64,000 bases of DNA. Source: Yuukianura sp. NJ FZ-2021 (Eukaryota). The stretch covers positions 6,820,001 to 6,884,000 of the forward strand of contig CM102286.1 of NCBI GenBank assembly GCA_046563655.1, read 5' to 3'. The stretch's first letter is position 1. The number at the start of each line of letters is the position of its first letter. Under the pieces are notes generated by a model, which did not search any database, was not told the origin of the DNA, and worked only from the letters and a program-made list of their open reading frames with translations. A program made the position numbers and the translations under genes. Shown in pieces: positions 10,858 to 52,584 of this stretch.

Positions 10858-12701
10858 TCACGACTGCCTTTGAAGCTGTTGTTGCGCATTTGGATCATAA
10901 TAGTGGCCGTTCGCTTTCATTTCTTGTGTTAAACATTTGTAAGCAACTTGCTTAAAGTAACCTTGATTGTGTGGCAAAATTAAAATAAAATGGAAAGCAA
11001 ATGGGAGGTTGGCAGGATTGCCAGCATATGTCTTCAGCATCATTCTTTGCATGTTGGCTTCCAACTGAGGTGGTGAGTCTGGAATATCGCGTACCATCGT
11101 TAGCCACTGAAATACTGCTGGTTGATATTGCTGGTACTGAATATTTGAGGAAATCATAGCAATAGGTCGACATGCATTCAATCGGACCTGTGTTATAAAC
11201 GTTAATTATAATAATTTCAAATGCTAAGTTATGTATACGTTATGTATCGAATTTCCATACCTGGTTTTGCACATCGTACATCTTGATTGTAGATGGATTA
11301 TTGGGGCCAATGTTTTGAGCTGCCTGTTGACAGTACGGGGTCATGTCTTTCCAGTACAATTCCTCCTGGGCTTTTTCAGAACTGTTCAGTTTGTCTGAAA
11401 TAGCACCGTAGCAGGACTCTTGGACCGTGGGGTTTGGAATTTCGTTGACAAAGTCCATGACTCCCGTAGGTGAAGCACCTTGATCTATCGCTTCTTCAAC
11501 AATTCCCTTGGTCACGTTTCCTAACTCGTCGGGGGAGCTGACGTTTTGTGCAAGGTCTTTCCAGTTGTCAATTGCAGTTTGTGGATCGCCAGAAGCCAAA
11601 TTTGCAACTGTTTCCTTTTGTTTCATAACTTGCGGCGTATTCTCAAGCTGCGTAAATTACATATATTATAATATCTCCGTATGTGTATATAAATATGCTA
11701 AATTTAAAATTGAATTTACGGAATAAATATATTCAATAGCTTAATGAAATGCAAATGCTTGCCATCTTTCCGACCTTTTTCTGCAAGTCATCAATATTTT
11801 CATACAACGCACGTTGAGTAGCCTCAAGGTTCTCAATCTGAAATGTAATTTGTAAGAACTCAAATTCCGAAAATTCTGGGTCTTAAAAATTTGGAGTAAA
11901 TTCTAAAATACAAGTCCACGATTTTGCTTTACCTTTCTAGTTAAATCCTTTATAAGTTTTATCAAATCATCAGTAGATGGATTTGGTGAGGCGTCCTTGA
12001 CCAAATTGGCTTCAGGTATATCCAATTGCTTTCCTTGCCTGGGACTCAGCTTCTCCGGTGCTTCTGTAGTAGTTGTTGGCGACTCAACCGTTTCAGGTGG
12101 AGGAATTGGCGTCGTTTCATCGTCGCTGTTTTTCGGCGATTCTTGGGTAGGAACGGTTGTTGGAGGTTCAGTGGCGCTTTCCGTTGTGGTAGTTGTTCCG
12201 CTCTCCGTTGTAGTAGTTGCTCCGCCTTCCGTTGTCGTAATTGCTCCGCCTTCCGTTGTGGTAGTTGCTCCGCCTTCCGTTGTAGTAGTTGCCCCGCCTT
12301 CTGTTGTAGTAGTTGCTCCGCCTTCAGTTGTCGTAATTGCTGCGTCGTCACTGGAAGGTTGAGCTGGCTGTTCTGTAGTTGTTTCTGCTGCCAACTCTCC
12401 CGGCGTTGTAGTATTTATATCTGGGGCGTCAGTAGTTGTCGCTTCGGGGTCATCCTTCCTCAATTCTGGGAACAGTTCCATGCATTGCTGTCGAAGTTGC
12501 TCTTCCGTGGCGTCCCGAAGTTTGTTTCTGCAAGAAAAGAACCGTAATGTTACCAATTCCAGTTTTCAGCGGTAGGCGTCAACATTCTTACGGAATTAAA
12601 GATGATATTGAACTAGAAGCTGACTTTTCTTGACTTCTGACATTTCCAATTGCAACTGAAAATGCAAGTACGATGACACTTAAAACCAAATGCCTCGCCA
12701 T
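10858..12701 (-). CDS. Uncharacterised secreted protein with a Thr-rich mucin-like region (5 exons)
   Basis: ATG 12701 with signal peptide MARHLVLSVIVLAFSVAIG. Exons about 12701-12592, 12527-11933, 11837-11775, 11647-11261 and 11187-10858 join through GT-AG introns. Contains TTTEGGA repeats and a coiled-coil-like segment (IENLEATQRALYENIDDLQKK). Confidence 0.75.
12178..12340 (-). repeat. 21-bp coding minisatellite, about 7 units, encoding TTTEGGA/ITTTEGGA
   Basis: Repeated TCCGCCTTCCGTTGTAGTAGTTGC-like units on the + strand. Confidence 0.9.
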
Positions 12702-19217: not shown

Positions 19218-22200
19218 TTAGTGTTCATATGCTGGGTTGCTGGAAAATTCACCTTGATATATTGGTGTTGTCAGTTCCAGCGAATCACAGTACATGTCAC
19301 GTATTACAGCTTGGGAAGTCTTCAGAATACCGAGAAAAGTAGACGCCCACCTCAAACTAACCTCGTCCTCCTTGCTTTGTAATTTACAGATCAACCTGTA
19401 GACAGGAAAATAAAAGAATATTCGAGTCAATTCTAATTTTAGTTTCCAATTTAGGCAAGGAGCTTATGCGTATTTTAAGTTAGCTTCACAAATACTTACT
19501 GCCAAATGTACGAGATCAGTTCCCGGCCTTCGTCGAGGTGATTTTCGGTGAGCAACTCTTGCAGATATGAAGCTAAGACTTGTCTATCTTCATGGTTAGG
19601 ACTCTGCTTGGACTTAATACCACCAACTAGGACGGATTTTATATCCGATATTTTGTTCACACCGTTCAGAAATGGTAGCACGTTACCGTTTGTGGTGTCA
19701 CCTATGTCACTCGTATCCATTGGTTGACTGGTAGGGTTTACCGGATCTCTGTCTACTTGTAGACCATCACGTGTATCTCCTTGTACTTCTGCGTCTTGCG
19801 ACAGTGGAGACATATTGTGTAGTATCGTGGATTGCACGGACCATACATTATCACTCGAGGGGTTCCGTCGATCCCGTCGTCCAAATGAATCATTGATTGT
19901 GGATTGCACAGATTTCTTTTCCGTTGCTGTCATATCATGTTCGTAGCGAAGGTTGTCCAGAGAAATTCTTACACCGCGGATATAATTTGCCGGGATTGAA
20001 GTTTTCGTTATCGACCTTCCAAGTTCCGATGCAATTTTGGCGAGCACTTTTGGATCTCGAGTTGGGATATGCAGTGGGCGTGTCCTAAATTACAAAACGA
20101 AACGTTAAAACGTTATTAGTGCGAACGCGATACTTCTTCATGCATCGGACCATTTTCCACAAGGATTGTGATACGAAGCTTACCTCGAATGAACGTCAAC
20201 TGCTCCATGGGCGCCGGGTTTTACTGGTTCATGTATGTGACCTTTCTTCACAACCCAAAACGACAATGTAATTTTTTTTCCAAAGCCCTCGCTTTCTTCC
20301 GCTCTTTTTGCCACTTCGGTGGAAAGTTGCTTGATAAATGTATTCACTTCCGTAAAATCTGTGAACCTAACGCCAAAACTACATCCGGCAGAGATCGACT
20401 TCGCTTGGTAACTCGTGTTATCGCACTTCAAAGCGTCATTGTCGACTCCTCTGCAAAGCCTGTTACAAAGAACGAGAATAAACATGTTAGTAAACACATT
20501 AAAACAAATTCCATTCTAAAAATATTTTCAAGTGCTTAAATCAAAAACACTGCATTTTACGATCAGAGTCTTGAGCTCACCAGTACAATTTCTCGCCATT
20601 TTTATCCCCAAATCCGCTTTTCAGATCATGCAAGGTCAAGCGTTGCAACTCCCCACAAGTTTCAATTTTGTAGAAATCCCGCAATTTTTCGGTAGTAGAA
20701 TAGCCGACACCCGGAAGTTTATGTGCTGGCAAGGAAACGATGAATTCCTTCAACTCGGACTCGGTCAAGTGACACGTTCCAGTTCCATTTTCCTTCGCCT
20801 GACGTGTCGCGATTCTGGCACTGAGTTTGTTATTGCCAATTCCAATTGAACACGAAATCTTTGCCGAATCCTTCGGGGCATTCAAATTACAAAATATATA
20901 ATTACAAGTTGAAAATATTAAGATAAATGGTTATATAAAATGCTGAAATACCTTAACAGCGTTTCTTAGGAAATTAGCAAGTCGTATTGGACTGGTCCCT
21001 GACTCGACGATAATCTTCGTTGCATCGATGTAGAGCTCATCACAGCTCACAGGTTCAATTTCTAGAGTAAGGCTGTTTAAAAAAAAATAGTTATGTTTTT
21101 ATTAGCAAAACATGGAGATTTTAACAACAAAAGTTACTTTGGCGAATATCTATCTCACCTTGCTACGGTTTCGAAAAATAACGTAGAAACCCGTTTGTAC
21201 TCCTCAAATTCGAATGGTATTGTTTGCAGCTCTGGACACAATCGTTTAGCCTGATCTAACCACATTCCAGCGTAAATACCTTTAGCTCTTCCCTCATAGC
21301 TGACACATGCAACCTCTGACTTGGAACCGGCCGTAGTCCCCTTAGAATGCGTTACAGCGACCGGCAAATTGGCAAGGTGCGGGCGGGTGAGGCGTCCCAC
21401 CGCCACAAAAAAACAATCGATGTCGACGTGCATAACGACTATAACAAAACATCGATTACAAGATTTGAAATGAGTTTAATTACACACAACGACACTCACC
21501 TTGCTTCAAATTTTCACCTAGTGAGTCAAGTGAGGCTATTGGTCTTGTCGTCGAATCGAGCAAATACTGATGTAGCAGTTTGAATTCGGGATTAGCGTTC
21601 CTTCTCCAACTAGCAACGAGTTGTTGTATGTGTTTCTTCATGGTAGAGATTAAGTGAAGCCTGGAATTGTTATAAAAGTCATCCAAGAACCCAACCTCTG
21701 TAGTAGATTTGAGAAGTTTAGCATGTCGTTGCTGTCCATCATCCAAACTTCTTTCAGGAGATATCGCTGTTGCTGTGCCGGGAGAAGGTGTCTCAGTCTC
21801 CGGCTCGTTTTGTGATTCACATATTGGAATTGAAGAAGAATTGGGAGACAAACTAATTTCGTCCCTTGTGACAGTGTCGTCCAAAACAGAATNNNNNNNN
21901 NNNNNNNNNNNNNNNNNNNNNNNNNNNNNNNNNNNNNNNNNNNNNNNNNNNNNNNNNNNNNNNNNNNNNNNNNNNNNNNNNNNNNNNNNNNNTTTCTGTG
22001 CCGGGGGAAGGTGTCTCAGTCTCCAACTCGTTTTGTGATTCGCATATTGGAGTTGAAGAAGTATTGGGAGACAAACTACTTTCGTCCCTTGTTACAGTGT
22101 TGTCCAAAACAGAATCGTTTTCTTTTGTGGTCGCATGGGGTTCCACAACTTGTGTTAAAGTTCTCTGATTTTGCTCCCTATCAATCACATAGATGTGAAT

Positions 22201-30297: not shown

Positions 30298-32165
30298 TCA
30301 AAATGCAATGAGAAGATTTATAATTGAATTTACAACTACGTCTGACCAGATACGCAAAAGAAACTCCCTAGTTTCAAAGGTAGAGACGCTACCAACGTGA
30401 ATACGTAGAGGAGTCATTCCCATCCAGAATTTCGATTCATATGTTGCTATGCTTTTTATTCCTTGGTTATGGCGACGCGCTGCCTGAATCAAGCTTTTGG
30501 ACAGAATGTGCTGATCCGTTGAGAGACTGAGAGTGAAATTTGTGGAAAATAGACAATTGAAATCAGCAACAATAATAAGAAAAATGACGATAAAGGGAAG
30601 GTCGGAGCCCCGAATTATGATAAATGTCATAGTGACTACCGCCATTAATAAGTTCGCAACGAAAAAGGTAATTTGATATCCAAACGCTACTCGAAATGCT
30701 TCAGCCGTTACCTTCACCTTCATGTACTCAAATCCAGTTGAAGTCGAACGATCCAAATTCCCCTTGGATTCATTTCTGCGAACATCAATTACACCGTAGC
30801 ACGCCATTAGATCAAAAAAATTAGGTAAGCAGAATTGACGTCAGCAGAAAATAGGTAAGTTGAAATTATGTAAGCAATGCATTTAGGTAAGCAATAGATT
30901 TAGGTAAGCAGAAAAGAGGTAAGTGGAAAGTAGGTAAGCGGCATAATTAGGTAAGCAGGATTTACATAAGTCACGAAGGCAAAATGTTTGGTTAGGGTTT
31001 GCTCGTTACGTTAGGTTAGCTTTATAGTTTCCCGCGCCAAAGGCTCGGTGTTAGGTTTTCAAAAGTTTGAAATACTGATTCGATCTCGAGGCATCGCTAA
31101 GGTTTGATTATGTTATCTAACGACCAAAATTTGAGCACTAAATAGTAACTTTTTTCAAAATTTCACCTTCGTGACTTATGTAAATCCTGCTTACCTAATT
31201 ATGCCGCTTACCTACTGTCCACTTGCCTCTTTTCTGCTTACCTAAATCTATTGCTTACCTAAATGCATTGCTTACCAAATTTCAACTTACTTATTTTCTG
31301 CTGACGTCAATTCTGCTTACCTAATTTTTTTGATCTAATGGCATGGAACCAATTACACACGTTATATCATAAATCCAACCAGTAATAAAGATTTAACTAA
31401 CTAGTCGTAATGCGGTGCAAGATGCGACCCAACAATTGCATGATTGTTGTATTGTTTTGCCTACCCATTCAAGCTCATGTCCTTTAGTTGTTGGTTAGTC
31501 ACATATAAGTTTATGTAAAACCAATGGCCCTGTATAAAGCAATTTACCACCGCATGACCCAGTCCAACTGCGATGGTACCAAGGACAGTGAATTTGAGAA
31601 GACCATAAACCCAGAAGTAAGTAATGGCTCCTTCGAAGCTCAGTTGCGAAGCTATTGAAGCTAGTGCTTGGTGTAACGTCGTGTATAGACCAGGGAATGA
31701 CCATGACGTAAAATACAACACTGGCAAGTAAATTAATGGGAACATAACTGAACTGTAAGAGAAAGCGAAACATATTATGTCAAAAGAGCGCGGTAGTTTT
31801 CTGGAAAGATTGAACTTCGTCTGAAGCGCGACGTTAGTGCCGTTAACACAACGTTGTCGGGTAGTCGGAATAAGGTGTATCCATTGAGACATGTGCATCA
31901 TAATAAACACGAAATTCATGCTAACACCAAACACTATTTCAAATTGTTGTGCGTTCCCAATAAATGCTTCATAGTACCAATAAGATACAAATACTCCGAC
32001 AACGACGGTTGAAAAGATTCCAAAAATTGTTTCTACAACTTGATGTTTAGTGTGAACAATACGATCAGGCTGTCCAGCTCCGAACTGATACGTTACCGGT
32101 ACGTAGTGCATAAAGTTTGCCCACTTATACATCCACCTCTCCCATATGTTAAAACGTTGCTTCAT
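30298..32165 (-). CDS. Gustatory/chemosensory receptor-like multi-TM protein (2 exons)
   Basis: Exons 32165-31465 and 30775-30298 join in phase (LNG|NES); several hydrophobic helices; GR-like C-terminus PLRIHVGSV...VVVNSIINLLIAF*. Confidence 0.75.
30795..31350. mobile_element. MITE with 8-bp TSD in the intron of the GR-like gene
   Basis: Arms of about 185 bp with repeated TAGGTAAGC; right end ATGGAACC, left end degenerate; TSD AATTACAC at 30787-30794 and 31351-31358. Confidence 0.88.
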
Positions 32166-33567
32166 ATCGTAAATTATGATTCGAAATTTTATTTTCAATA
32201 GGTAAAATATGTTTTCACAGAATTCAAGTTACTCAAATGCTAACACTACCGTAACCACAGAAGTAACATTATAGGTTCAAAATTCCTCACTCAGTATAAA
32301 AAACAACGCTTAGACTTTATACTGCTTTTGCAAACCTGAGAAACTTGATTTATAAGTTTTCCAACTTAAGCTCAAACGCAATTTACTTTAATTCGTCGAA
32401 GAATCGTGACGATTCCAATTATCGCTCATGTCAAAAAATTCCGTGAAGCTAAATGATTCATGAAGGTAAGCTATGCGTTAGGATTATAATCAACCTGTGG
32501 GCTTAATTTACCCTGCTACTGACGGTTTATACGAGATTTAAGCAACCTTGGTCAGGGCACAATATCTAAGCTCGATTAACCGTACATAGAAAAAAAAACA
32601 AAAATATTATTATCTTTCTTGGAATGGGCGCGGTGATTGGAAAAAGTACTTTCTTATTCCATTTTTTTGATAATTGCGAAATAAAATGCCACCCATATTT
32701 AGGATAGTTCGGTTGTGATGAAGGAGTCAGTCAGTCCTCAGGGTATGTTGAAGACTAAAAAAATACAAGAGAATGGTAATTAAAGTGTAAATTATTAATT
32801 TCAATTATCGGTTAATGAAAATTTAAGCTCTACATGACAGTAATTGAGTTTTGCCTCAATAGTGTTGGCGTTGAGTCAATACAAACATCAACTTTCAAGA
32901 AGTGAACTCTTTTAAAGGTTTCTGCAGGTATAGTTACTGAATGCTGAAATAAAACGCTGTCGCAACGGTGTTGCTAATCTTGTAAAGCAAAGTAATGTAT
33001 AACTTTAGAGGAAAAACATCGTTTATTTAGTACAGCATTTACGCCTAATAGCAATAGCAAATATATTAATTTTATAGTCAGAAGATTATCTTATGTCCAT
33101 TTGAACATCACCGGACAAAATTGATGTTGTAACACAATTCCCATTGCATTTTAGAACGCTCGGCCCCTCCAACCGAAGTGGTGAAATGGGCTGCCTGTGG
33201 TACCACATTTTGAATGAAAATTTTAAGTAATTCATGACCATTAAACACATTAAAAGTACACAATTAAGCAAAGAGAAGTATTTTACAATTCTACAGAATT
33301 TAAACTGCAATAAAATTTTGCACGAAAATGAAAATGACTTTAGCCAACACAATGCATAAACAATTCTAACACCTATTTTTTCACGGCTAGTTTCTTTTTA
33401 AACCGATTTCGAAAAAGAAAATTTGTCATTTCGCATTAATTCTTAGTCATGGTTAAGTCTACACTTGAGAATCTCGCCCATTTCTTAACTTTACATAGGT
33501 TTAGCGGTATATTGCCACTGGATTCCATCTATGCTGCACCAGAACGCCAAGCTTGGACAGCTAGTAC

Positions 33568-34252: not shown

Positions 34253-37200
34253 TTAATTTCCAAAACGTTCCGGTTTCTTCACAGTACGTCCAGATTTAGT
34301 CACAACCGGTACTTCGACTTGAATGTCGTCTGCTTCCTCTTCAGCGTATTCCATGGTCATCTCACGGTTTCGCTTCTGCTTTCCAGTAGCCTTCCGAACA
34401 TCTCCGACTGTCTTCTCGTCGCCAATCGACTCACGAACATCTCCGACTTTCTCCGGATCAGCTTCTTCGACTGGTAGCTCGTCCCTCCTCACTTCCAATG
34501 GCACTAAACGTTGAATTGGACGAGTTAGAATTCCAGTCTTGGTCCGAACTTTTGCGATACGAATTTCCCCGTCATTGCCAGGAATCAACTCGACAATCTT
34601 CGCCATTGGCCACAGGACCTTCTTCACCTTGTCGATTTCCACAATGACGATTTCCCCAACTTCAAATTGCCGAATCTTCTTCTCGTTGCCCCGCTGAACA
34701 AGTTGGCCTAAGTAGTCACTTCTGAATGCCTCCTTCAGTTCAGCCAGTAGTTTCCCCAGTTGTCGTTTCTTGTCATGTAGAGATGACACTTTCACTGTAG
34801 ATGCTTCTGGAACTTCACTTTCTGGTAAGTCGTGGAGGAACATTGCTGGAGTTATGGACACAAAATCATCTTGGTCCTCAGTGACGTACGTTAGTGGACG
34901 GTGATTAACAGCTGATTCCACTTCACACAATGCAGTCTCTAACTGTACATACGTCAATTTGGCGAATCCCAGCATCCTTCTTAGCAAGTCCTTGACGCTC
35001 CTAACCAGACGTTCCCACCATCCTCCCCACCATGGTGCAGAAGGAGGGTTAAACACCCACTTCACGCGATGAACTTGAGTTTTCTTTTGAACTGAATCCC
35101 AGTTGATGCTTTTGAACAAGTTCACGGCTCCGACGAAGTTGGTGCCGTTGTCTGTGTAAACGATGGTTGGTCTCTGTCTTCTCTTGCTGAATCTAATAAA
35201 AGAGAAAATAAAGTCTTCTGTAGACAGAGATTCAACTAACTCCAAATGAATTGCTCTGTACACTGCACAAGTAAACAACACAATGTACACTTTGTCCTTG
35301 TTCTTAAGTGTTAATGGGCCTGCCAGGTCAATTCCAGTGACCTCAAATGCTTTTGCATCTCTGACTCTTGGTTCCGGTAGTGGACAGATTCTGCTTTCGC
35401 CTTTCTTCCCATCAAATCTGGTACATCTGACGCACTTCCGGATGACTTTCTTGATGGCTCTGCGACTTTGAACAATCCAAAACTTCTCTCGTAGTTTAGC
35501 CATCATCAGCTGCGTCCCACTGTGAGAGTTCAGTTCGTGGGTCTCCATAATGATCAAAGTCACGAATGGATGAAAGTTTGGCAGTAAGATAGGGCGACGG
35601 AACAAATCACTGTCTTGACGGTTGGTAATCTTAGTTTTCACTCTAATGATTTCGTCCGTGTCCTTCTCCACTCTAAGTCCTTCAATGACACTTTTCTGAG
35701 TAGAAAACGATTCCAACTGCACAATTTTGATGAATCGTCGTTCCACACAGTCTAATTCTTCTGCCGTTGGTCGTATGCTGTTCTCTCGTTGTCCAATCTT
35801 CCGTGTATTGTTCAGGAACCGGAAAACAAATGCCAAAACACGGAGATTAGAACTGTAATTATTTTTAACTACATACCAAGGCCTAAAATCTGCAGTAACG
35901 TTGAGAGTCGAGATTCCCCGTTTCCTCTCCTGATCGACTGCTTCCTCGTCTGTCGGTTCTTCTGCCAGTGGCCACAATTCCTTTTGCAGTCGAAGCCAAC
36001 CCGGTCCTTCCCACCATCTCGACTCGACAAATTTGGTGGGTGTGATACCCCTGGAGGGTAGATCGGCTGGATTATGTATTCCGGGAATGTGATGCCACTG
36101 TGATGCCTGGGTCAACTGACAGATCTCCTTCACCCTGTTGCCTACGAAAGTCCCCCATTCGTTGCTTCTCTTGATCCAGGAAAGTGCAGTGGTCGAATCT
36201 GACCAAAAGTAGCATGGGACGTTGTCCAAATTCAGGGCCGTCTTCACTGACATTGCCAGTCTTGCTGATATGGTGCATGCGAGTAGCTCTAGGCGTGGAA
36301 TTGAAGCTCCCTTGATAGGAGCAACTCTGGATTTGGCCTGTAAGAGATGAACTTTGACATCTTCCTTGGTTTCCACTCGCAGATACACTACTGTAGCGTA
36401 GGCTCTCTTGCTGGCATCTCCGAAAATGTGAAGTTGGTAATTGTCAAAGTCATTGATCTTGTCTCCACTGACGTCTCTGCGTAATTTGACTTTGTCCATG
36501 ACTTGAGAGAGTTCAACTGACCAATTCACAAATTCGGTCACGATGTTAGGAGTCACCTCGTCGTCCCAATTTCTGTCTTCCATCCACGCCTGTTGCATGA
36601 GGATCCTTGGAACGATGAGAACTGGTGACCAAAGTCCAAGTGGGTCAAATACCTTCTGCAAAGAAGACAAAATAACACGTTTAGTTATTTTCGTAGGTAT
36701 TTCTGTAGGGATGACGTCACAAAACAAACTATCTTCGTCCTTGTCCCACTTTAACCCCAAAACGTTAGTCACACACTGATCTTCACAACTGCCACTTCTT
36801 TCCCACTGTCGTAGCTCCATCTTTGCAGTAGACAAAATTCCTGTAGACACTTCCTTAACAGTTTCAAACTCTTTCACAGTGTCCACTGCCAAAACCAAAT
36901 TGTCCACGTACAAAGATTTGATGATGTGAGTCACGACCGAGGGATTCTCACTGTGATGTTGGTTCAAATGATGAAAAATAACTGCACCCAGTAAAAATGG
37001 GCTACAGTTCATGCCGAACACCACTCGGTTGTGCATGTAAATTTTAACGTTCTTACGTTCTACGTCGTTCCACCACAAGAATCTGATGAAGTCCCGGTCC
37101 TCTGGATGAACTTCTATCATCAGAAATGCCTTCCGAATATCTGCGATGATCCCAATTTTCCCCATCCGAAATCGAAGTAAAATTGAAGGGATGAGATCCA

Positions 37201-39550
37201 GAAGATTCGGGCCTTTCTCCAGGCATTCATTGAGAGACGGGTGTCTTCCCACTTTGCATGATGCATCAAAAACGGGACGAACTGGAGTGGTGACACTGTT
37301 TTTGAAGACAGCACGATGAGGCAAAAAATGACACTTCACGTTCCCACCGTCTGCTTCCTCCTTGACCACGGAAATGATCCCCTCAGCCTCCCAATCGTTG
37401 AAAACTTTCTCGTAGTCTGAGTATCTTCCAGTTGACATCAATTTCCGGGTCGTGTTCTGTAGTCGTTTCATCGCAACTTCACGATTTGACGGTAGCACTG
37501 GAGTCTGACTAATCCACGGAAGTCGGACAGAATATCTTCCAGTCTGATCACGACTCACGGTCTTCTGAAAATGTTCCAGTGCTTCTTGCTCGTGCTGTTC
37601 TTGAGACATTTTCTCCACGGGGTCACGGATACCGAGTGTGTCCAAACTCCAGAGTTGACTGACGGTTGAATTGGAAACTGTCATAGAAAAAACAGACATA
37701 ATTAGTTCATTTGAAACTTTTCGTCTGTCAATTTCCCCCATCACTGCCCATCCAAGTTGAGTTTCAGTTGCAGTGAGTCCGTTCTGCAAACGCTGGATCT
37801 TCCCTGTCAAAATGTCACCTAAAATGTCCGCACCAATTAGAAATTCAATTTCTGTGGGGTTACGCTCGTCCAAGTCATTAACGAAAATTCCGAGTCGTTT
37901 CAACTCCCCCATCCATGGACCTTTCGTTACACGAGGTAACGATCCACACAATGATTCATGGTCCATCACTTTCACATTTAGACAAAACGAACCGTGAACA
38001 CTCTGCACCTGAAAGTCGTAAACAAAATGAGGCACATTACGCACTTCCGTTCCACCAAACAACTGATGGTTAATTGAGAGAGTGTCAATTGGTTTCAAGT
38101 TCAAATCCAATGCCGTCTTCTTCAGGAGGTAACTCCGTTGTGACCCGCAGTCAATTAGGACTCGAACAGTCTTCGTCTGCTGACTTGATGGATTCACTAG
38201 TCTAACCATCATCGTTTGTAGAATGACTTCATTCGTGCAGTTGAGGTTAGACTGTGTAGTGACATCCGTTTTCTTCTGTTCGTCCTTCTGACTATTCCTC
38301 GGATTCTGCGGACACTGTAGTAGCTCGTGACGTTTGGTGCACAATGGGCACTTAATGTTCGCCTTGCATGATTTGGACATATGCCCCGGTTTTAGGCAAA
38401 CAAAACAGGCCCCTTTCTTCTTCAACTTGTCACCTCGTTCATTCTTCGTCATTTTCTGTGCTGCATAGCAGTCTTTGGAAGAATGTGACTTGTCACAGAA
38501 GACACACGAAGGTTTAGAATTTCCACTGAAGAGACCGGCAGCAGTGGGAAAACTTTCATCAGTTGACTTGACTTTTCTGGTTTCTTTCTTCTTGTCAGCT
38601 GATTCGAAGCCGCTTCGTGCCAATTTACGGTGTTCTTCATTTTCTATTTCCAAACGGAGAAAATCCATGAGGAAATCCATTTCAGTTTTCGGTGGTGTAA
38701 GTACGGATCCGTCGGCACCAAAATTCGGACTCCGTTGCCATGCAACCAAAATATCCTCTGGCAGACTTGATTCCACCATTGGGAATAGGACTACTTCCAT
38801 GGCCTCCACCGACAGGTTAAGTGACTCCAACGAACGAAGATGTGAAATCAGACGATCGTACAGTGAGGACAAAGTCACTTTCTCACGAACACGAAGTAAA
38901 ATCATGGAGATGACTTCCCGTACGTAGTACTGCTGTAGGAGTTTCGTTTTACCAAAACGATTTTTCAAAGCATCAATCGCCTTCTGATAGTTTTTCTTCG
39001 ATTGAGGGTAGCCTTTGATCAGTTCCTCAGCCCTTGATCCTTTCTCCATGCTTTGAATTAGATAAGTGAACTTATCAGATTCATCTAAATCTTCATCCAA
39101 GTGAATCTTCTCGAATTGCCCCCACCACCCGAGCCAGTCTTTCAAGTCTCCTCCGAATTTAGCAAGTTCAATTTTAGGATACTTGATCGTTTTCTGCCGA
39201 TGTGTGGTTGAGCAGTTTTCACTTGGGTCATGCACACTGCTGTGATGTGACTGTGGATAGAAGATAGCGTTGACTCTGACACGAACAGCACTCACTTTCA
39301 GTTGATACTCTTGAGTGTGTGTCAATTCTTCATCCAGCATCTCATCCGTTGTTGAATCAGAATCCAACATCATGGACTTGATAGTGTCATCTGCTTCGTT
39401 CAGTTTGATAAACTGGCCCTCAAGTACTGCGAGAATGGTTTCCAATTGTGAATTGTCTTTCTTCTCCTTCTCCAGTTCCAAATTGAGTGAGTTCACCAGT
39501 TTCGTGACAGCTGACCGAAGTAGTCTTCTTTCTTTCTTTAGCTTGTCCAT
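34253..39550 (-). CDS. BEL/Pao gag-pol polyprotein (1765 aa)
   Basis: DUF1759-type gag (FGGDLKDWLGWWGQF), three zinc knuckles, aspartic protease (LIDCGSQRSY), RT (ADIRKAFL, FGMNCSPFLL, YVDN), RNase H (FGDASKRAY, IPRLELLA, WSDST), integrase (GIDLAGP, TDNGTNF, PWWGGWWERLV) and a DUF5641-like tail. Confidence 0.97.
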   Translation of the reverse strand: MDKLKKERRLLRSAVTKLVNSLNLELEKEKKDNSQLETILAVLEGQFIKLNEADDTIKSMMLDSDSTTDEMLDEELTHTQEYQLKVSAVRVRVNAIFYPQSHHSSVHDPSENCSTTHRQKTIKYPKIELAKFGGDLKDWLGWWGQFEKIHLDEDLDESDKFTYLIQSMEKGSRAEELIKGYPQSKKNYQKAIDALKNRFGKTKLLQQYYVREVISMILLRVREKVTLSSLYDRLISHLRSLESLNLSVEAMEVVLFPMVESSLPEDILVAWQRSPNFGADGSVLTPPKTEMDFLMDFLRLEIENEEHRKLARSGFESADKKKETRKVKSTDESFPTAAGLFSGNSKPSCVFCDKSHSSKDCYAAQKMTKNERGDKLKKKGACFVCLKPGHMSKSCKANIKCPLCTKRHELLQCPQNPRNSQKDEQKKTDVTTQSNLNCTNEVILQTMMVRLVNPSSQQTKTVRVLIDCGSQRSYLLKKTALDLNLKPIDTLSINHQLFGGTEVRNVPHFVYDFQVQSVHGSFCLNVKVMDHESLCGSLPRVTKGPWMGELKRLGIFVNDLDERNPTEIEFLIGADILGDILTGKIQRLQNGLTATETQLGWAVMGEIDRRKVSNELIMSVFSMTVSNSTVSQLWSLDTLGIRDPVEKMSQEQHEQEALEHFQKTVSRDQTGRYSVRLPWISQTPVLPSNREVAMKRLQNTTRKLMSTGRYSDYEKVFNDWEAEGIISVVKEEADGGNVKCHFLPHRAVFKNSVTTPVRPVFDASCKVGRHPSLNECLEKGPNLLDLIPSILLRFRMGKIGIIADIRKAFLMIEVHPEDRDFIRFLWWNDVERKNVKIYMHNRVVFGMNCSPFLLGAVIFHHLNQHHSENPSVVTHIIKSLYVDNLVLAVDTVKEFETVKEVSTGILSTAKMELRQWERSGSCEDQCVTNVLGLKWDKDEDSLFCDVIPTEIPTKITKRVILSSLQKVFDPLGLWSPVLIVPRILMQQAWMEDRNWDDEVTPNIVTEFVNWSVELSQVMDKVKLRRDVSGDKINDFDNYQLHIFGDASKRAYATVVYLRVETKEDVKVHLLQAKSRVAPIKGASIPRLELLACTISARLAMSVKTALNLDNVPCYFWSDSTTALSWIKRSNEWGTFVGNRVKEICQLTQASQWHHIPGIHNPADLPSRGITPTKFVESRWWEGPGWLRLQKELWPLAEEPTDEEAVDQERKRGISTLNVTADFRPWYVVKNNYSSNLRVLAFVFRFLNNTRKIGQRENSIRPTAEELDCVERRFIKIVQLESFSTQKSVIEGLRVEKDTDEIIRVKTKITNRQDSDLFRRPILLPNFHPFVTLIIMETHELNSHSGTQLMMAKLREKFWIVQSRRAIKKVIRKCVRCTRFDGKKGESRICPLPEPRVRDAKAFEVTGIDLAGPLTLKNKDKVYIVLFTCAVYRAIHLELVESLSTEDFIFSFIRFSKRRQRPTIVYTDNGTNFVGAVNLFKSINWDSVQKKTQVHRVKWVFNPPSAPWWGGWWERLVRSVKDLLRRMLGFAKLTYVQLETALCEVESAVNHRPLTYVTEDQDDFVSITPAMFLHDLPESEVPEASTVKVSSLHDKKRQLGKLLAELKEAFRSDYLGQLVQRGNEKKIRQFEVGEIVIVEIDKVKKVLWPMAKIVELIPGNDGEIRIAKVRTKTGILTRPIQRLVPLEVRRDELPVEEADPEKVGDVRESIGDEKTVGDVRKATGKQKRNREMTMEYAEEEADDIQVEVPVVTKSGRTVKKPERFGN

Positions 39551-39950
39551 CGTTCGTGCAAATAAAAGAAGAAATAACGAACGATTAGTTACCAGGTACC
39601 AACGATTAGTACAAAACGATCTGCACCTGGGTCAATCCCGTTCCGGTAGGGATACACCGCGACGTAAACGTTTGGTTTAATTGAAGTACGTAGATTCCAA
39701 GTCTCGTCACGTCAAATCAGTTTGTTTCCCGTAAGTCCGATCAGGTATGGCTCCGTCAATCCAATTCAAAACAAAGATCCTCGATTAGTTATGATCAATC
39801 TCAATATCAATTGGAAAGATATCACCTTAATCAATCCCACTCCGGCAGGGATACGCCTCGATGTAAACAGTTGTTTTAGGTGATGATCGATCCTCTTCCG
39901 TCAATTAGCAGGTTCCAGTATCCCGTATGTCAAGGTCAAAGCCACAAGTA

Positions 39951-40336: not shown

Positions 40337-42247
40337 AGTACAAAACCGGAAAGGAAAACGCAAAAAGTCTTCATAGGGGTTAAGCTTTCCCCCAAAACAG
40401 TTCACATTTTTTCGTACATCGTCTATTCCTACATTTCAGTTCGATGCATTGCTATTATAATCCAGTACATTTCCAATTTCTCTCTGAACAAAGTACTGCT
40501 AAATCAGAACGTCACATTCGTTCTGTCAATTGCACAATTTGCAGGACTTACGGTGGTATGGTTTACGCAGCGGAGAAATGCCCACGCCTTTGTCGCTTTT
40601 CTTAACAGTTGGCACATTTTCGAGAAACAGTTTGCGGAATGGATTTCCAGTAATTGCTGCCCATTATTTAAAATTATTTTTAAAATGACAAAAAAAATAA
40701 CAAAAAGTTTATGCAAAACAATTTAAAAATTTTATTTATAAAACTAAACTAAAAATGTGTGATAATGGATATGTGACCTAAAAATAGGTAATAATGGAGA
40801 ACGAAATTTCGCTCACTTTGGAGAAATTGCTCGGCGTTTCTATATTCTTGGAGTTCTAACTGCGACAACGCCTGTAGGCTTGCTTATTGTAAAAATGGAT
40901 TGGCTACTTACTGTCATCCACTCGTACTGGATCCTCGGATTCCAGAATTTCCCACCTTCAGGCTTGAACACTGCCATGTACACTTTAACGACATTCGAAA
41001 CATTTGTGTTTGTTGAATTGTTCTGGATGGCATCCTACATCTACGACATTGTCTATCTGGCCTTTCCATGCAGCATGGAAGCATGTCTGGAGACATTGAT
41101 CAAGGTTCTGCCAGGTTCGGGAGAGGAAATTTCGGACAAAATTGAGGTCACAAAGCAGGCGCGAGGTCAAGGGGCCGAACTTCACCAGGTCATTGAAATG
41201 TACAAGCGCCTGCGTCGCCTTATAGCATTGTTTAATAAGATATTTGCCCAATCTGTGTGCGTGTTGATCAGTCTCACATTAGTTGCTACGTGCTACACTA
41301 CGTATCGGTTTGCTAAGTTCTGGCATGAAATGGGCATTGAAACCTGTATGTTCCATTTTGTTTTCATTCTGATAATGACTTCACGCGGATTCGCAATGAC
41401 AATAGTCATGGGCAGAGTCCATAACGCATCTCTTGAGTTGCTAAAATCGTGGAAGGAAATTATGCAAAATGTTGGCGGGAGTAACTATCTTAGCGGTTCT
41501 GACCAAAAACAACTGGAAAACGCCATACAATTTTTCACGCCGTTGCAATTTTGGAGCGGCAAATTTCACAGCATTTCTTCCTCAACTTTCCTTACACTCC
41601 TTTCTGTCGTAGTCACAAACAGCATCATGTTGTTGCAAATGTTTTAAAACGTTGAATTTTTGATTTTTGGAATAACCTTGTTCCATTTTTTTCTTTGGTT
41701 TAGTTACAGTATTGAATAAAGGTATTTCTATTTGGATATTTTTTTATCTATTCTTTAATTTCTTCTGCAAAAATTGCGAAACCGTGACACACGAGCCTAA
41801 TTTTTTTTGACAATTTCATTGCACCGAAAAGCTTTGTTCGGTTGTATTTTTATTTGAACACTGCTAGTACAAGTACAATAGACTTTTAGGGGTAAATCAA
41901 CCTTAGCTAGTTCCTGCTTCAATTTGGAAAATTGAAATCTTCTTTAGCAAAGTAAACCATTAAAGCACTCTAAGCTAATTTGTTGATCTAGTTTGCAATA
42001 AATAATTAAAGCCTTTCAATACTAATCAAATTAACATTCTTTTGTTTTTCATTCTCTTTGCTTTCTGAGTAAAAATGTTCGTTGATTATAGAAATTGGAT
42101 TTTAAACTTATCCACGGTTCTTTTGTTACTTGGCAAATGAAAACAACGTAATGAGTTTACTCAAACACTTCAAAAATTTTCCTTATAATGATACGTTTTA
42201 CATTTTTTTTTCTTCATTTGACTCAATTCGGATCCACAGTTGCACAA

Positions 42248-43667
42248 ATGAAGAAATCAGTTGTTGAGAATCTCCGTTGGCTTATGACCCTGTTTCGGTT
42301 GTATGGACTTCTTCCGCTGGAATACATCTATGTACCGCCGAAACGCGGGAAGGCAGATTGGGTAACTAACAGACCAATCAAGACAACCGAGAAATCTTTT
42401 GAAGTTATGCTGAGTGGCAAAAAGTTTCGTCTATTTTCCGGTGTTGTCTACGCCTACATGTCAATTCGTGCTTTCCTTGGCATCGGTCTCTTTCTTATTA
42501 AGCTACTCAAGAAGAATTTGGGGTTTGACAACATTTTTATAGCTCTTTCAATTTCTCAAGTTACTAGTGGTTTTGTCGCGAATGGCACGATTCGCAAAAA
42601 TGCTGAAGCTTTTTCTGCGTTTATGACGAACTGGCATATACTGGACCAAAAGCTGTCGGAATGGAATTCTGGTACGATCATTAGTAAAAACAAAAATAAA
42701 ATTGAAAGTTAGTAGGCAGCAATTTTGTTATCGAATTATTCTTAGATATGGAGAAAGACATTTCAGCCAGAGGAAAGCAACTTTCGCGTCTGCTATTTTT
42801 TCTCCTAGTATTCAATTGCATGATGCCCATTGTCCTTTTCGTACTAATACCCGAGCAACTATTTGTTATGTTTCACACTTACTGGATCTTTGGACTTCAA
42901 GAGTTGGAGCCATCATTTACAACCAGCGCCATCTACTTCCTCACCTCAGTGGAAACGCTTCTTGCTTTACAATTTTGGTGGATTGCACTTGCTCTGTTTG
43001 ACTTTACATTCTGTGTGTTCCCTTACAGTCTGGAACAGTATTTGAAATCATTTCCAAAAGTAATGAAAAAATTTGAAATGACAACAAGCAAGATGTTGGA
43101 ATTTGGAGGAGCTGACGAAAGCCGGGATTGGGATCGGATGGAAGTGATTGGGGCAAGGTACGTCAGGTCAGAGGCAAAGGTCAATGACCTTACGAGTGTG
43201 ATTACTTTGTATTGGCGAATGTACGATCTCACTGAGTCTTTCAACCTCATACTATCAAACGTTGTGCTGTGCTTGAACGCCATTACAATGACTGGGATGT
43301 GTTATTCCATATATGGGTTGGCGCCAACTTGGCGCAGGGATGGAAGAGCGAATCCAAAAGCATGTTCGTGTTGTACTTCCTGTCAATGATGGTAGTAATT
43401 CCACGCGTTTTTGGTATGATGCTGTTGATGGGCCGAGTACATTCTGCATCGAATGCATTGCGGAAGCATCTAGTCAAGCTGGTGGCAAGTGATGGTGGTA
43501 CTGCGCTTTTGAATTTTTCGGCGAGAAAACAACTTGAAAATTTTCTGCAATTTTTTATGCCGTTGCAGTTCTGTAGTGGCGAATTCTACGGCATTTCGTC
43601 ATCAACGGTACTCACTCTACTGTCAGTCGTTGTCACAAACACAATTATGCTGCTTCAAATGTTCTAA
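42248..43667 (+). pseudogene. GR-like chemoreceptor paralog with a frameshift near 43335-43365 (pseudogene or assembly error)
   Basis: Exons 42248-42671 and 42746-43667. Homology to the upstream paralog switches from the 42748 ORF frame to the 43269 ORF frame with no intron; ends TLLSVVVTNTIMLLQMF. Confidence 0.75.
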
Positions 43668-47997: not shown

Positions 47998-48877
47998 ATG
48001 AAGCCGGTTTTGGGGTAATATTTCGCCGCCAAGTAGAATACAATAGTCAACATAGACTGTAGATATTAATTATAATAATAATAATTATAATCCAAAATGT
48101 TTTAGATATTGGAATCTACGAGGACGTGTCAATCCAATTCGCATGTTGCTTCACTATGTTGGGGAAGATTTCGAAGACAAGCGATATACAACACCGGAAG
48201 ACTGGTTCGGACAAGACAAAGTGAAATTCCAACAGGGTGTACTGGATTTTCCAAACCTGCCGTATTACATTGACGACACTGTTAAACTTTCGCAGGTCAG
48301 TTTCAAATACATTTGCAAGTGAAAGTTCGCTCATTGCTAAACCTATAGGTAACGTCACTTTTCAGTATTGAGGATTTTTCTTTTTTTACAGACCCGAGCA
48401 ATCTTGCAGTATTTAGGCCGAAAGCACAACCTGATTGGCCAAAGCGAGCAAGAACTTGCGCGAATGGATCTAATCGCTGAACAGTGCGCAGACATGATTT
48501 CCGCCCTTATCACCATCGCATATCCTCCAAATGTTGACAACCGCCAAGAAATCCACGACCTCACGCGGAAAGAGTATCTTGCATCACTCCATCAGAAATT
48601 AGAAGCTATTGCTAAATTCTTAGGAACCAATCAATGGATTGGAGGAAGTCATGTGACCTACGTCGATTTTTGGGTCTACGACATACTGGATTTCAACCGT
48701 CATTTATTCCTTAAGAAACATGTAGACCAATTCCCAACACTCGTTGCGTACATGACTCGAGTTGAAAGCTTGAAAGGAGTCAAAGAATACTTGAATTCAT
48801 CAGCATTTCAAGTACTCCCAATTTTCGGTCCATTTGCTATGTTTGGACAGACCAAGGACTACGTCCCATCTGACTGA
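47998..48877 (+). CDS. GSTM: Glutathione S-transferase, mu class (3 exons)
   Basis: MKPVLG|YWNLRGRVNPIRMLLHY...LDFPNLPYYID...KLSQ|TRAILQYLGRKHNL...VTYVDFWVYDILD; exons 47998-48014, 48106-48295 and 48392-48877. Confidence 0.92.
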
Positions 48878-49208: not shown

Positions 49209-51531
49209 ATGGTGTCATCAACCTATTTCTGTTTTGTACTTATTGCAATGTCTAGTGTATCTTCTGAACAAATTGAAAGAATCACATCAATCTTGGTTAG
49301 TTAGTAAATAATTTTCTGAAAACTTTGAAATATTATTATGGTGTTGTTTTTGCTACAAGGCGGAGCCATTTTTAATGCTGAAGCGAGATCACATAATGTA
49401 CCTCGGAAATGACATTTATGAGGGATATTCAAAAGATTTGGCTGACATGCTCGCAACTCGTCTCAACTTTACTTGTAATGTGTTAACTTCATTGACAAAC
49501 AAAATTTATAATGCTTGATAAACGATACTTGTATGTATTGAAGTCATTTGTTTTTTAAATTTTCCACAGATAGGCTGAGCTTAGTACGGGACAGCAAGTA
49601 TGGAAGACAAACAAACGGCATTTGGAATGGAATGATCGGAGAGCTTCTGGACGAGGCATTCTAATATGAAAAATGACATTTCCGATTGCTTTTGATCATT
49701 TTAGATGATCAAAATGATCAAAGATGAGTTTACTGTAGCCATGTACAGTAATTATTTGATTTATTTAACTTGAAGGGTGTGGCTGACATGTGCATTGCTC
49801 CTTTGACGATTACGAAGGAACGAAGATCTGCGGTTGACTTTTCGACTCCGTTTCTTGAATTTCAATTGGCCATACTTCTGCGAAGACCAGGATTTGGATC
49901 CGATGGGGCTATGATCGTCAACCAATCAACAACAGACAATAAAGGCGTCAATGAGAATCCAATATTTCGCGCTGCTAGCACCGCCGTTTGGATTGCACTT
50001 TTGGGATCCCTAATTACTTTGATTTTCATGTCACTTATAATCGAACTAATCTTCACAAAGAAACTCAGAGAAAGCAAAGACTCAGCAACGACTTCCGGCG
50101 TGGCGCTACAATTCGTATTTTGGATCTTCATCGCCGTATTTCTCACGGCATACGTTGGGGCTTCTGTCTCTTACAGAGTTGTAGAAATACTTCGCGGGAA
50201 TGAAGACGACGCTGTATTGTCTATTAATTCGATTTCGGATTTGGCTTCCCAGGATCAAGTTCGATTTGGCGCCATTAGAGCTGGCAGCACTTTCGACTAC
50301 TTCAAGGTAAAAAGCAGACCTCTTCACACTCAAATCTACTACGTGTTATAAATATTAAAACCGACTAAAAATCAATAGTGTGAGGTAGTACGAAACGTAT
50401 AAAGATAATTTTCAAAAATTCCGAAACCATTTTTCGCGAATAAATGTAAACTGTTATTAGTATGTAACATATAACCTTCAAGTGTAAAGTGTCGCCATCA
50501 AACTCTGACATTGGTTCTAACTGTTTGTATAGGTGTCTCCAGATCGACTCCACCGCAAAATATATTCTATCATGAACAGAGACAAAGTTTCATTGCCTGG
50601 GACCATTGAAGAAGGCGTGTCAAGAGTACGATACGGAACAAGTAATTCCGGATAAACGATTGAAGCACAGATCTAGTTAAAAAATGACAACTATTTTCTA
50701 CATAACTTTTAAATAACTCATTTTCGGCTGTGCCATCTTTATATGTATACCTTTTTTTTTAATTTCTATAGTTTCGAATATGGAAGAACGCATGCGCAGC
50801 GCATCACTCCTTCCATTAAATTAAATGCGTGCTATTTATACGGATATGGAATTGCATAACAAATAATTTGTGATGACTTTAGGCCCATTTGCGTTTATAA
50901 TGGAGTATCCCTATGCAGCATATCAGACGACAGTGAAACCTTGTAACGTTGTAATGGCTCCAAATTATTTTGGCCCGAAAAAAGCCTTCGCCGTAGCGTC
51001 ACGACCAGGCTATTGGTTGAGGTGAGAGTATTAATGCGTTTTTTGCAATTTACGTAATTAGTACATTCATTTTTGGCTCTCAGGGGACAAATAAATTCGG
51101 CGATCTTGACCATGAAGGAGAACGGGGAACTGGATGAATTGGAAGCAAAATGGATGCAACGTACAAATGAATGCGAATCGGAGGCAATATCCAAAGGAGA
51201 GGTGCCTTTTGATACTTAATGAATTCAACCATACAGACTTATTTCTTTTCAATTTTAACTTTCCCTTCTTGCATGCAACTAGGATCAAACAAGTGATACA
51301 GAAGTGACTGTCGAAAATTTCTTGGGAATTGCTTGTATTGTGCCAATTGCTTTTATATTTTCACTCATCGCAGCCGCAATTGAGTTAATATTAGCCAGAA
51401 CGAAAATTAAGGTAAGGTGAACAGATAAGCCAAAAAATCAAATAGTTTTTTTTTGCACTAAAAGATTGATTTTAATGCAGGAAAACACAAATCAAGCACG
51501 CCAAATGATGCAGATGCAAGTACGTGATTAA
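49209..51531 (+). CDS. Ionotropic glutamate receptor-like protein lacking the ATD and the pore loop
   Basis: Signal peptide followed directly by S1 (EPFLM, YEGYSKDL, KYG..WNGMIGEL, IAPLTITKERRSAVDFSTPF), M1, M3, S2 (GSTFDYFK, FAFIME, INSAILTMKENGELDELEAKW) and M4 (NFLGIACIV...AAIE); about 9 exons. Confidence 0.85.
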
Positions 51532-52584
51532 AAAAATTCAATACAGTTTCTTCAATAACCAAAATTTAAATTTTCTTTTTACCTACTTATTTTTCCTAAT
51601 TAAGTCAGGTTTTCATAATAAAGAGTGAGAGCAGTAATCTCTTTTAAGCCAAACTGTTATATTTCCCTATGTAGTCAAAACTAACCTATTTAAGTATACA
51701 TGTGTATCAAGATATTCGTGTGATTGTTTTATTTTTTGCAATAAGTGGAGTTTGTATTTGCAAAAACGTAATGAAAGTACATAAGATAAGTTAGAGGTTG
51801 ACGAATAATTTAAACACTCCCTTCTACATTCAGGATCACCTTGAACAATATTTCTCAAGTGTCGTGCTATCTCCTCGTTGCGGATCAAGGAATTCCTACA
51901 TTATAAAAACTCTATTATCATCGCACCCCTTACTTAATAAAAAGCGAGTAGAGTTGTGAAGTTATCAGCATGGTTGCGTGTATTTTTTTAACAAACTTGA
52001 ATATACGATTAATGGAGTTAAAAATAAAAACAATAATGAAATGAAGTTTGACTAGTTCTCTCTCATTGTCTTTTTTATTCTCCTACCTGTATTTCTATAT
52101 AGAGGATGAGAATTGATTAATATTACTTATCATTGTACTACTCATTGTGTTCAGTTAGCGTTTTTATTCATTGTAAATGAAATGTGTAGTTTTGTTGCGG
52201 AAAATATTACTATACAGTGTGTCAACGAAAGCGAAGCACCACCACTGCGTTCTTAAGTAACGAACACATTAACTATTTAACATCGACTTCAATTAAGTAA
52301 AAGTTTAATGTTTTCCCAGCTATCCTAGTCCCTAACATCAACTAGAGATTGGGCAAGCTAAATACGCTACAAAGTATGGATTTTACGGTATTAAAAAATT
52401 ACCTGGACAACAAGCTTTCTCGGAGTAGCGACGAGGCGTTTGTGACGAGGGGACAGCAAATATTATTTTCCGTCTCCTGGATATCTTAAAACTAAAAACC
52501 AAGCAAAGGAATATCGATTCGACGTTCCAATTTTTCATTTCATCCAATCCTACAAGTGTTGCTTTTACTATTTTAGAAAAGACA

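Follow-up and report, generated by a model that had tools for sequence, protein, structure and literature searches.

The ligand-binding domain of ionotropic glutamate receptors (iGluRs) is viewed in the field as the gate-keeper for a pore, and to our knowledge a pore loop is present in every characterised iGluR, ionotropic receptor (IR), plant glutamate receptor-like protein (GLR), bacterial GluR0 and kainate-binding protein. Here, we analysed a 64,000-nucleotide stretch of the Yuukianura sp. NJ FZ-2021 genome (assembly GCA_046563655.1, contig CM102286.1, positions 6,820,001 to 6,884,000 of the forward strand; hereafter the window), in which a preliminary description made from the sequence alone had singled out a gene at positions 49209-51531 encoding an iGluR-like protein with a ligand-binding domain but without the N-terminal domain, the re-entrant M2 pore loop or the SYTANLAAF gate. 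We find a genuine, intact gene at this locus. It encodes a type-I membrane protein that derives from an AMPA/kainate-like iGluR subunit and is probably a non-conducting, membrane-anchored ligand-binding iGluR derivative. Rather than the singular oddity it first appeared to be, the gene is, on sequence comparison, the most reduced member of a conserved arthropod family.

By sequence and fold, the window protein is nearest to the AMPA/kainate subunits (GluA1-4, GluK1-3), sharing their ligand contacts, S2 disulfide cysteines and S1-M1-M3-S2-M4 order, but it differs from them in the missing N-terminal domain, the shortfall at M2, the degenerate gate, the longer pre-M1 and M3-S2 linkers and a very short C-terminal tail. 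Vertebrate kainate-binding proteins (annotated 'glutamate receptor U1' or 'probable glutamate receptor') are alike in lacking an N-terminal domain, in a length of about 450-490 residues, in an AMPA/kainate-type binding domain with its glutamate contacts and in a signal peptide leading straight into S1, and a protein-atlas feature search placed P0001, the closest relative of the window protein, nearest to kainate-binding-type clusters (score 0.97, 461 aa, Chordata). The M1-M2-M3 unit of kainate-binding proteins is whole, pore loop and gate motif included, whereas neither M2 nor the gate remains in the window protein, which groups with an arthropod clade, not with chordates; we rejected this classification because the window protein has no pore. 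Protostome IRs resemble it in arthropod origin, iGluR derivation, a divergent channel region and the absence of an N-terminal domain, and are defined by a binding domain missing at least one glutamate contact together with PF10613 and a PF00060 channel domain, as worded in the paper that delineated them (Croset 2010, PMC2924276). By contrast, the window protein has all the contact residues and no pore loop, and the IR assignment was rejected because every ligand-contact residue is kept. The distinction from both groups drawn in the preliminary description therefore stands.

The delta receptors GluD1/2 differ from the window protein in having both an N-terminal domain and an entire pore, but offer a precedent for non-ionotropic use of the iGluR scaffold. 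One account argues their role to be independent of ion flow (PMC11295041), while a 2025 paper reports GluDs as ligand-gated channels (PMC12520249). Voltage-sensor-only proteins, namely Hv1 and the voltage-sensing phosphatases, are described as keeping a channel sensor module without the pore module (PMC4148356), and serve here as an analogy only, being of unrelated fold and family and having known outputs.

The gene model, rebuilt from the raw sequence, comprises nine exons on the forward strand that join into one open frame of 454 codons, the exons and outer coordinates being those first proposed. Seven of the eight introns are GT-AG, and intron 3 (49656-49775) is GC-AG, starting GCATTC. In L004, a genomic relative, 6 of 6 comparable introns agree with those of the window gene in codon and phase (compared by eye), and intron 3 occurs there at the same position and phase with a GT donor. 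The encoded chain starts with a signal peptide (49209-49265, residues 1-19) and S1; M1 and a degenerate M3 follow, linked by a short basic turn, and then S2 and M4. The N-terminal domain (PF01094) is missing, with the first S1 strand beginning within 10 residues of the signal peptide, as in full-length relatives, and a GST gene ending at 48877 on the same strand, 330 bases upstream, leaves no room for N-terminal-domain exons; the earlier claim that the signal peptide leads straight into S1 thus agrees with both the alignment and the upstream gene.

M1 (49980-50066, protein residues 165-193) and M3 (50091-50210, with the gate position at 50145-50174) both lie in exon 4 (49776-50306), a single open frame of 177 aa that begins with the last part of S1, including the ligand Arg, passes over a long linker ahead of M1 to M1 itself, a turn and M3, and continues through a lengthened M3-S2 linker into the first part of S2. 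As had been argued before, this uninterrupted frame leaves no missed exon for M2. The two helices are joined by an 8-residue turn, RESKDSAT (50067-50090), which comes after a KK closing the M1 helix, has Lys and Arg residues on its flanks, and sits where iGluRs have the M1-M2 loop, the M2 pore helix and the selectivity filter. The link, put at about 19 residues in the preliminary description, proved shorter: 8 residues by AlphaFold and 13-15 by alignment. In a MAFFT alignment, 13 residues separate the end of M1 from the Ser-Gly opening M3, compared with 50 in the AMPA-type reference P0127, leaving the window protein ~37 residues short of iGluRs at the M2 position. Alignments of exon 4 to the sequences of solved structures (best E 1.5e-10) skip the M2 region entirely, exon residues 3-45 matching GluK1 491-533 and residues 113-177 matching GluK1 619-676. 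Pfam and AlphaFold were run on the window protein exon by exon and on exon 4, respectively, and the whole-chain structure was taken from the relative P0001. PF00060 gave no match at E <= 0.1 across six exon translations, each scanned singly; the relatives P0001, P0005 and P0153-P0155 carry it in precomputed annotation.

AlphaFold, given exon 4 with a 40-row alignment, placed a helix at exon residues 69-97 (M1), coil at 98-105 and a second helix at 106-145 (M3), with a mean pLDDT (predicted local distance difference test) of 71-88 in blocks of 10 residues over 71-140. M1-M3 of the window protein is thus modelled as a plain hairpin without a re-entrant helix, the alternative against which the preliminary description had set its claim. 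The P0001 model (pLDDT 85.3) likewise has no helix between M1 and M3, residues 204-214 falling below pLDDT 50, and its best structural matches are GluA2 chains spanning the ligand-binding and transmembrane domains (E 4e-32, about 30% identity). The gate reads AYVGASVSY in place of SYTANLAAF, identical at 1 of 9 positions (MAFFT), the lowest in the family, whose other members conserve 4 to 6 of 9, so that the reported loss of the gate holds. The window protein also has about 11 to 15 extra residues before M1, where the pre-M1 collar motif is lost, and, compared with solved structures, an acidic insertion of 7 residues in the M3-S2 linker just after M3. M4 (51319-51396) is a hydrophobic 26-residue segment aligned with M4 of the references.

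From these features, S1 would lie outside, M1 would cross from outside to inside, the basic-flanked turn would be cytoplasmic, M3 would return to the outside, and S2 would be followed by M4 and a short cytoplasmic tail. Lys and Arg also follow M4, and the parts predicted to be outside contain the glycosylation sequons NFT and NQS. As M2 is a re-entrant loop entering from the cytoplasmic side, its deletion would leave this topology unchanged. The elements that couple clamshell closure to ion flow are missing or degraded, namely the pore helix and filter, the gate, the pre-M1 collar and the M3-S2 linker, and we infer that the window protein cannot form a canonical cation pore.

The clamshell itself is preserved. 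Exon 4 matches PF10613 (E 1.5e-8) and PF00497 (E 4.5e-5), which together represent the bilobed S1/S2 domain of the periplasmic-binding-protein type, and the protein aligns over its full length with the AMPA-type reference P0127 and the kainate-type reference P0041 (MAFFT), in keeping with the AMPA/kainate-style binding domain recognised earlier. The S1 ligand Arg in ITKER (CGA, 49821-49823), the S2 ligand Ser/Thr in the AGSTF motif (50280-50294) and the S2 ligand Glu in FIME (GAG, 50903-50905) are identical in both references, confirming the three contacts originally reported, and the identity extends to the motifs YEGY and KYG and to the pair of cysteines in S2. These contacts presumably correspond to R485, S654/T655 and E705 of GluA2. 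Judged by the alignment, the clamshell retains all the residues by which AMPA receptors grip glutamate at its alpha-carboxylate, alpha-amino group and distal carboxylate, and the window protein most likely binds an amino acid, glutamate-like.

The search for relatives placed this protein in a family. A full HMMER pass of exon 4 against 1.84 billion representatives gave 209 matches at E <= 1e-3, headed by P0001 (478 aa, 39% identity, E 1.5e-17); at the same threshold, none of 2053 candidates had matched in a preliminary search restricted to longer proteins. The set compared comprised 152 fetched proteins and the window model, of which 129 have at least 300 residues and 120 have S1 and S2 anchors; these 120 were ranked by S1-to-S2 span and then read by eye for a canonical M2. 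A minority lacked it: P0105, P0087, P0042, P0013/P0152, P0101, P0135, P0029, P0116, P0138 (partial), P0005/P0151, P0001 and the window protein. Three further relatives came from a profile search: P0153, P0154 (479 aa, from Orchesella dallaii) and P0155. The family proper consists of the window protein, P0001, P0005/P0151, P0153-P0155 and the nucleotide contigs L001-L003, some members being metatranscriptome sequences, and its sole named member besides the window source is the springtail Orchesella dallaii.

In an IQ-TREE phylogeny of 44 hand-picked rows under a mixture model, all nine family rows formed one clade with a support of 100 in the Shimodaira-Hasegawa-like approximate likelihood ratio test (SH-aLRT), and the window protein paired with P0001 at 89. 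A FastTree phylogeny of 94 rows, from which short-flank rows were left out and P0004, P0012, P0030, P0100, P0050 and P0152 were removed by hand as chimeric, duplicated or redundant, grouped the window protein, P0001, P0151 and P0005 at an SH-like support of 98, and requires at least five changes of the M2-less label. As read in the alignments, the family is marked by PF(L/Q)(E/D)FQL in place of the iGluR motif PFMxLGIS, with FQL replacing LGIS behind the S1 PF motif, by FGPxxG(Y/F) in S2, by an acidic run ahead of M4 and by a lengthened M3-S2 linker. The N-terminal domain and the canonical M2 helix are missing from all its members. The M1-M3 linker measures ~28 residues in the Orchesella subclade and ~45 in P0001, and only the window copy is too short for any re-entrant loop.

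Several family members reside on contigs that barely exceed their coding length. L001-L003 are contigs of 1.7-1.9 kb without introns, bearing uninterrupted frames of 481, 479 and 446 codons, whereas L004 and L005 represent the gene lineage of L001-L003 with introns; L001-L003 are therefore spliced mRNAs, and they lack M2. A weak match, L006, was left out of the comparisons. Between L001 and L002, the proportion of nonsynonymous differences (pN) was 0.116 and that of synonymous differences (pS) 0.759, the latter saturated (Nei-Gojobori), and dN/dS between L002 and L003 was 0.116. Among the relatives, pN lay far under pS in 6 of 6 regions, the M1-M3 linker included. Such ratios indicate that the relatives are under strong purifying selection. 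Neutral evolution and a lack of expression, named in the preliminary description as the marks of a decaying pseudogene, thus give way in the M2-less relatives to purifying selection and spliced mRNAs.

In the window protein, conservation is distributed unevenly along the chain. Identity to the AMPA reference P0127 is the same as that of P0001 in S1 (47 of 108 for both) and nearly so in S2 (45 of 143, compared with 47 of 142), but falls well below it in pre-M1 plus M1 (2 of 46, compared with 10 of 46) and in M4 (5 of 28, compared with 9 of 28). The membrane helices thus look like anchors under relaxed constraint, with a binding domain as conserved by sequence as in the relatives. A constrained clamshell combined with relaxed helices argues for a membrane-anchored binding protein and against uniform neutral decay.

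On balance, we favour a non-conducting, membrane-anchored ligand-binding derivative of an iGluR as the probable identity of the window protein. Such a protein may act as a stand-alone sensor or buffer, or as a silent or modulatory subunit beside pore-bearing iGluR or IR subunits; the roles named in the preliminary description, a non-conducting sensor, a decoy or a dominant-negative subunit, are putative. A number of observations weigh against this reading, and most of them favour one of two alternatives, with which they are considered here. Two are general. Amino-acid binding, non-conduction and partnering are, for every family member, read from sequence and structure prediction, and both AlphaFold runs, on exon 4 and on P0001, were of sequences from this M2-less family.

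The first alternative is that the M2-less family is functional but that the window copy is one of its paralogs, recently disabled or in decay, with an open frame that persists only because the decay is young. Homology searches found no close ortholog of the window copy, the nearest sequences being 35-39% identical. Intron 3 depends on a weak GC donor; if that donor were unused, a stop two codons into the intron would end a 98-residue protein. The window copy has the shortest linker and the most degenerate gate of the family and forms the longest end branch in its clade (1.51, compared with 0.97 for P0001; IQ-TREE). Of 65 columns without variation in five comparison sequences, it keeps 47, a lower fraction than in the relatives (47/56, 47/54 and 47/47), and its M4 is identical to that of P0001 at 4 of 28 positions while P0001 and P0154 agree at 12 of 26. 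Yet no stop or frameshift interrupts 454 codons over nine exons, the other seven introns are canonical, and GC-AG introns are a recognised minor class. Neutral decay would be expected to strike all regions equally, whereas the divergence is concentrated in the membrane part; the ligand contacts and both cysteines are kept, and most of the 18 substitutions at columns invariant elsewhere are conservative, for instance Y to F, I to V and A to G/S/V. We therefore consider decay of the window copy unlikely.

A second alternative keeps the protein in conduction, either through a filter-less tetramer pore of M1, M3 and M4 or as a tuning or gating subunit beside M2-bearing partners, canonical iGluRs or IR co-receptors, that would supply the pore, much as IR tuning subunits depend on IR25a/IR8a. 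M1, M3 and M4 and the iGluR topology are kept, and in the 44-row tree the family adjoins M2-bearing proteins, a placement without support (42). The relatives carry more than an empty linker: MAFFT matched the C-terminal end of M2 and the filter with the end of this linker, which reads ..FLRQES..SPESLAGK in the Orchesella subclade and ..LCRNG..GPRSATGR in P0001, and this remnant has Arg at the first Gln of the references' MQQG, a column that we take to be the Q/R site. Both M3 and the remnant are conserved and under purifying selection in the relatives, and the family may thus retain some pore-related function. The earlier statement that there is no pore loop accordingly holds strictly for the window copy alone, the other family members keeping this conserved M2 C-terminal remnant, even though the canonical pore helix is missing in all of them.

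A homodimer prediction for P0001 bears on this alternative as well as on the favoured reading. It scored 0.50, compared with 0.12 for the best of three controls, with a contact agreement of at least 52% and a partner pLDDT of at least 68 across runs. The predicted interface joins an S1 helix (residues 111-127) and an S2 helix (375-391), presumably the classical iGluR dimer interface. Among solved microbial structures, 21 of 30 homodimers and 0 of 23 single chains attained the mark applied; among eukaryotic ones, 17 of 29 homodimers did so, but only 1 of the 7 without an older solved relative. As many iGluR binding-domain dimers have been solved, the P0001 result is possibly a memory of them, and it shows likeness rather than binding. 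Against a conducting role stand the window gate, kept at a single position, the lost pre-M1 motif and the M3-S2 linker lengthened by seven residues. In addition, M1 and M4 of the window protein are far more diverged than those of the relatives, a poor fit to the specific helix packing of a tetramer, and a pore with one to four filter-less subunits is without precedent in the literature searched. We regard a part in conduction as quite unlikely for the window protein.

A faulty gene model, in which missed splicing would add an M2 segment or an N-terminal-domain exon, is highly improbable: the exon structure of the family does vary, with the Orchesella-type relatives L004 (~880-1040) and L005 (~340-530) having an extra intron just before M3, where the M2 end would lie, but M1, linker and M3 occupy one open frame in the window gene and likewise one exon in P0006, a genomic open reading frame (ORF) of a relative, the full-length mRNA-type contigs of the relatives also lack M2 and the N-terminal domain, the GST gene bounds the locus upstream, and a tblastn search of the model against the whole 64-kb window found no second iGluR-like segment.

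No description of an M2-less iGluR was found in the literature searched, whose scope ended short of the supplements of hexapod genome papers and of subscription journals. One survey of the superfamily states that sequences with fewer than 4 SYTANLAAF residues were dropped (Ramos-Vicente 2018, PMC6307864). As the window protein keeps 1 of 9, it would be removed by such a survey. Filtering on the gate motif is thus a blind spot of surveys, one that would miss the window family as well as the lineage of P0013 and P0087 described below. If our reading of the window protein is right, the iGluR scaffold has been reused beyond canonical ion conduction by a conserved family that is expressed in relatives. 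The family would also provide a natural test case for non-ionotropic iGluR signalling, which is still argued for delta and kainate receptors.

Other proteins without a canonical M2 were seen outside the family. A second group (P0013, P0152, P0087 and P0101) comprises proteins of ~400-420 aa without an N-terminal domain, with ~20 residues between M1 and M3 and a partly kept gate (IYSANL). P0013, P0152 and P0087 lie on short intron-free contigs of 1.4-1.8 kb, and P0013 and P0087, which are rows in both trees, are placed apart from the window family in both, which suggests repeated loss of M2. That pore-less iGluRs form a selected, recurrent receptor class, acting as non-ionotropic amino-acid receptors or silent regulatory subunits, with at least one further lineage (P0013/P0087) having lost M2 independently, is a tentative proposal that we hold to be possible rather than probable. 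Such a class would be the ligand-gated counterpart of the voltage-sensor-only proteins, the window gene being the most reduced in one of its families, from springtail-like arthropods. Two nematode predictions, P0042 (Acrobeloides nanus) and P0116 (Pristionchus entomophagus), are also without M2; both come from genome annotation, where a missed exon is possible. In P0157 (292 aa), an iGluR-like protein, S1 is joined to S2 by ~8 residues with no M1-M3, resembling a laboratory S1S2 construct; its contig spans 1005 bases only and may stop short of the 3' end and of any M4.

The remaining features of the gene are distributed over its exons as follows, all on the forward strand. Exon 1 (49209-49295) holds the start codon, the signal peptide and the beginning of the first S1 strand, its N-terminus aligns with those of the relatives, and the intron at its end (after ..SIL) has the same position as in L004. 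Exon 2 (49360-49474), with the YEGY motif at 49417-49428 and the NFT sequon, matches PF10613 (E 7.6e-5) and continues S1. S1 extends through exon 3 (49570-49655), which bears KYG (49596-49604) and WNGMIGEL and ends at the non-canonical GC donor, GAG being followed by GCATTC across the boundary. S2, opened in exon 4, occupies exon 5 (50533-50641), whose introns on both sides are positioned as in L004, and exon 6 (50883-51021), which contributes the ligand Glu of FIME, KPC (50936-50944) with the first of the S2 cysteines, and FGPKK, a motif of the family. Exon 7 (51084-51201) matches PF00497 (E 1.1e-3) and encodes the region of helix J in S2 (AILTMKENGEL) as well as NEC (51166-51174) with the second of these cysteines, and exon 8 (51283-51411) encodes the acidic S2-M4 linker followed by the M4 helix. 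The assignment of exon 9 (51481-51531), with a 16-residue cytoplasmic tail and the stop codon, is uncertain: the tail has no homolog in the MAFFT alignment, and if the exon is unused the frame closes two codons past exon 8. A candidate polyadenylation signal, AATAAA, lies at 51617-51622, 86 bases past the stop.

The surroundings of the gene have an arthropod-like character, with a rhodopsin-type G protein-coupled receptor, 7tm_6/7tm_7 chemoreceptor genes, an EB-module protein, a G-beta gene and a BEL/Pao-type retrotransposon frame in the window. For a proteasome subunit ORF of the window, identity is 66% with unnamed transcripts, 58% with Orchesella dallaii and 52-65% with other listed proteins, insects, mites, ticks and a millipede among them. 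Tandem seven-transmembrane chemoreceptor-type frames occupy 40766-43667 on the forward strand, the first matching 7tm_6 (odorant receptor; 27.3 bits, cutoff 25.8) and 7tm_7, and further long multi-pass frames without a Pfam match lie at 30298-32228 on the reverse strand. Also on the reverse strand, 34253-39631 is a single, apparently intact frame of 1792 codons that resembles the polyprotein of a BEL/Pao-type long terminal repeat (LTR) retrotransposon and in which gag-like zinc knuckles, a protease, a reverse transcriptase and an integrase were recognised by eye. An assembly gap of 100 N (21893-21992) falls amid repeated similar open frames on both sides, and a reverse-strand frame at 11903-12565 carries several tandem copies of a Thr/Glu/Gly-rich repeat (..TTTEGGATTT..) and has a mucin-like, secreted look.

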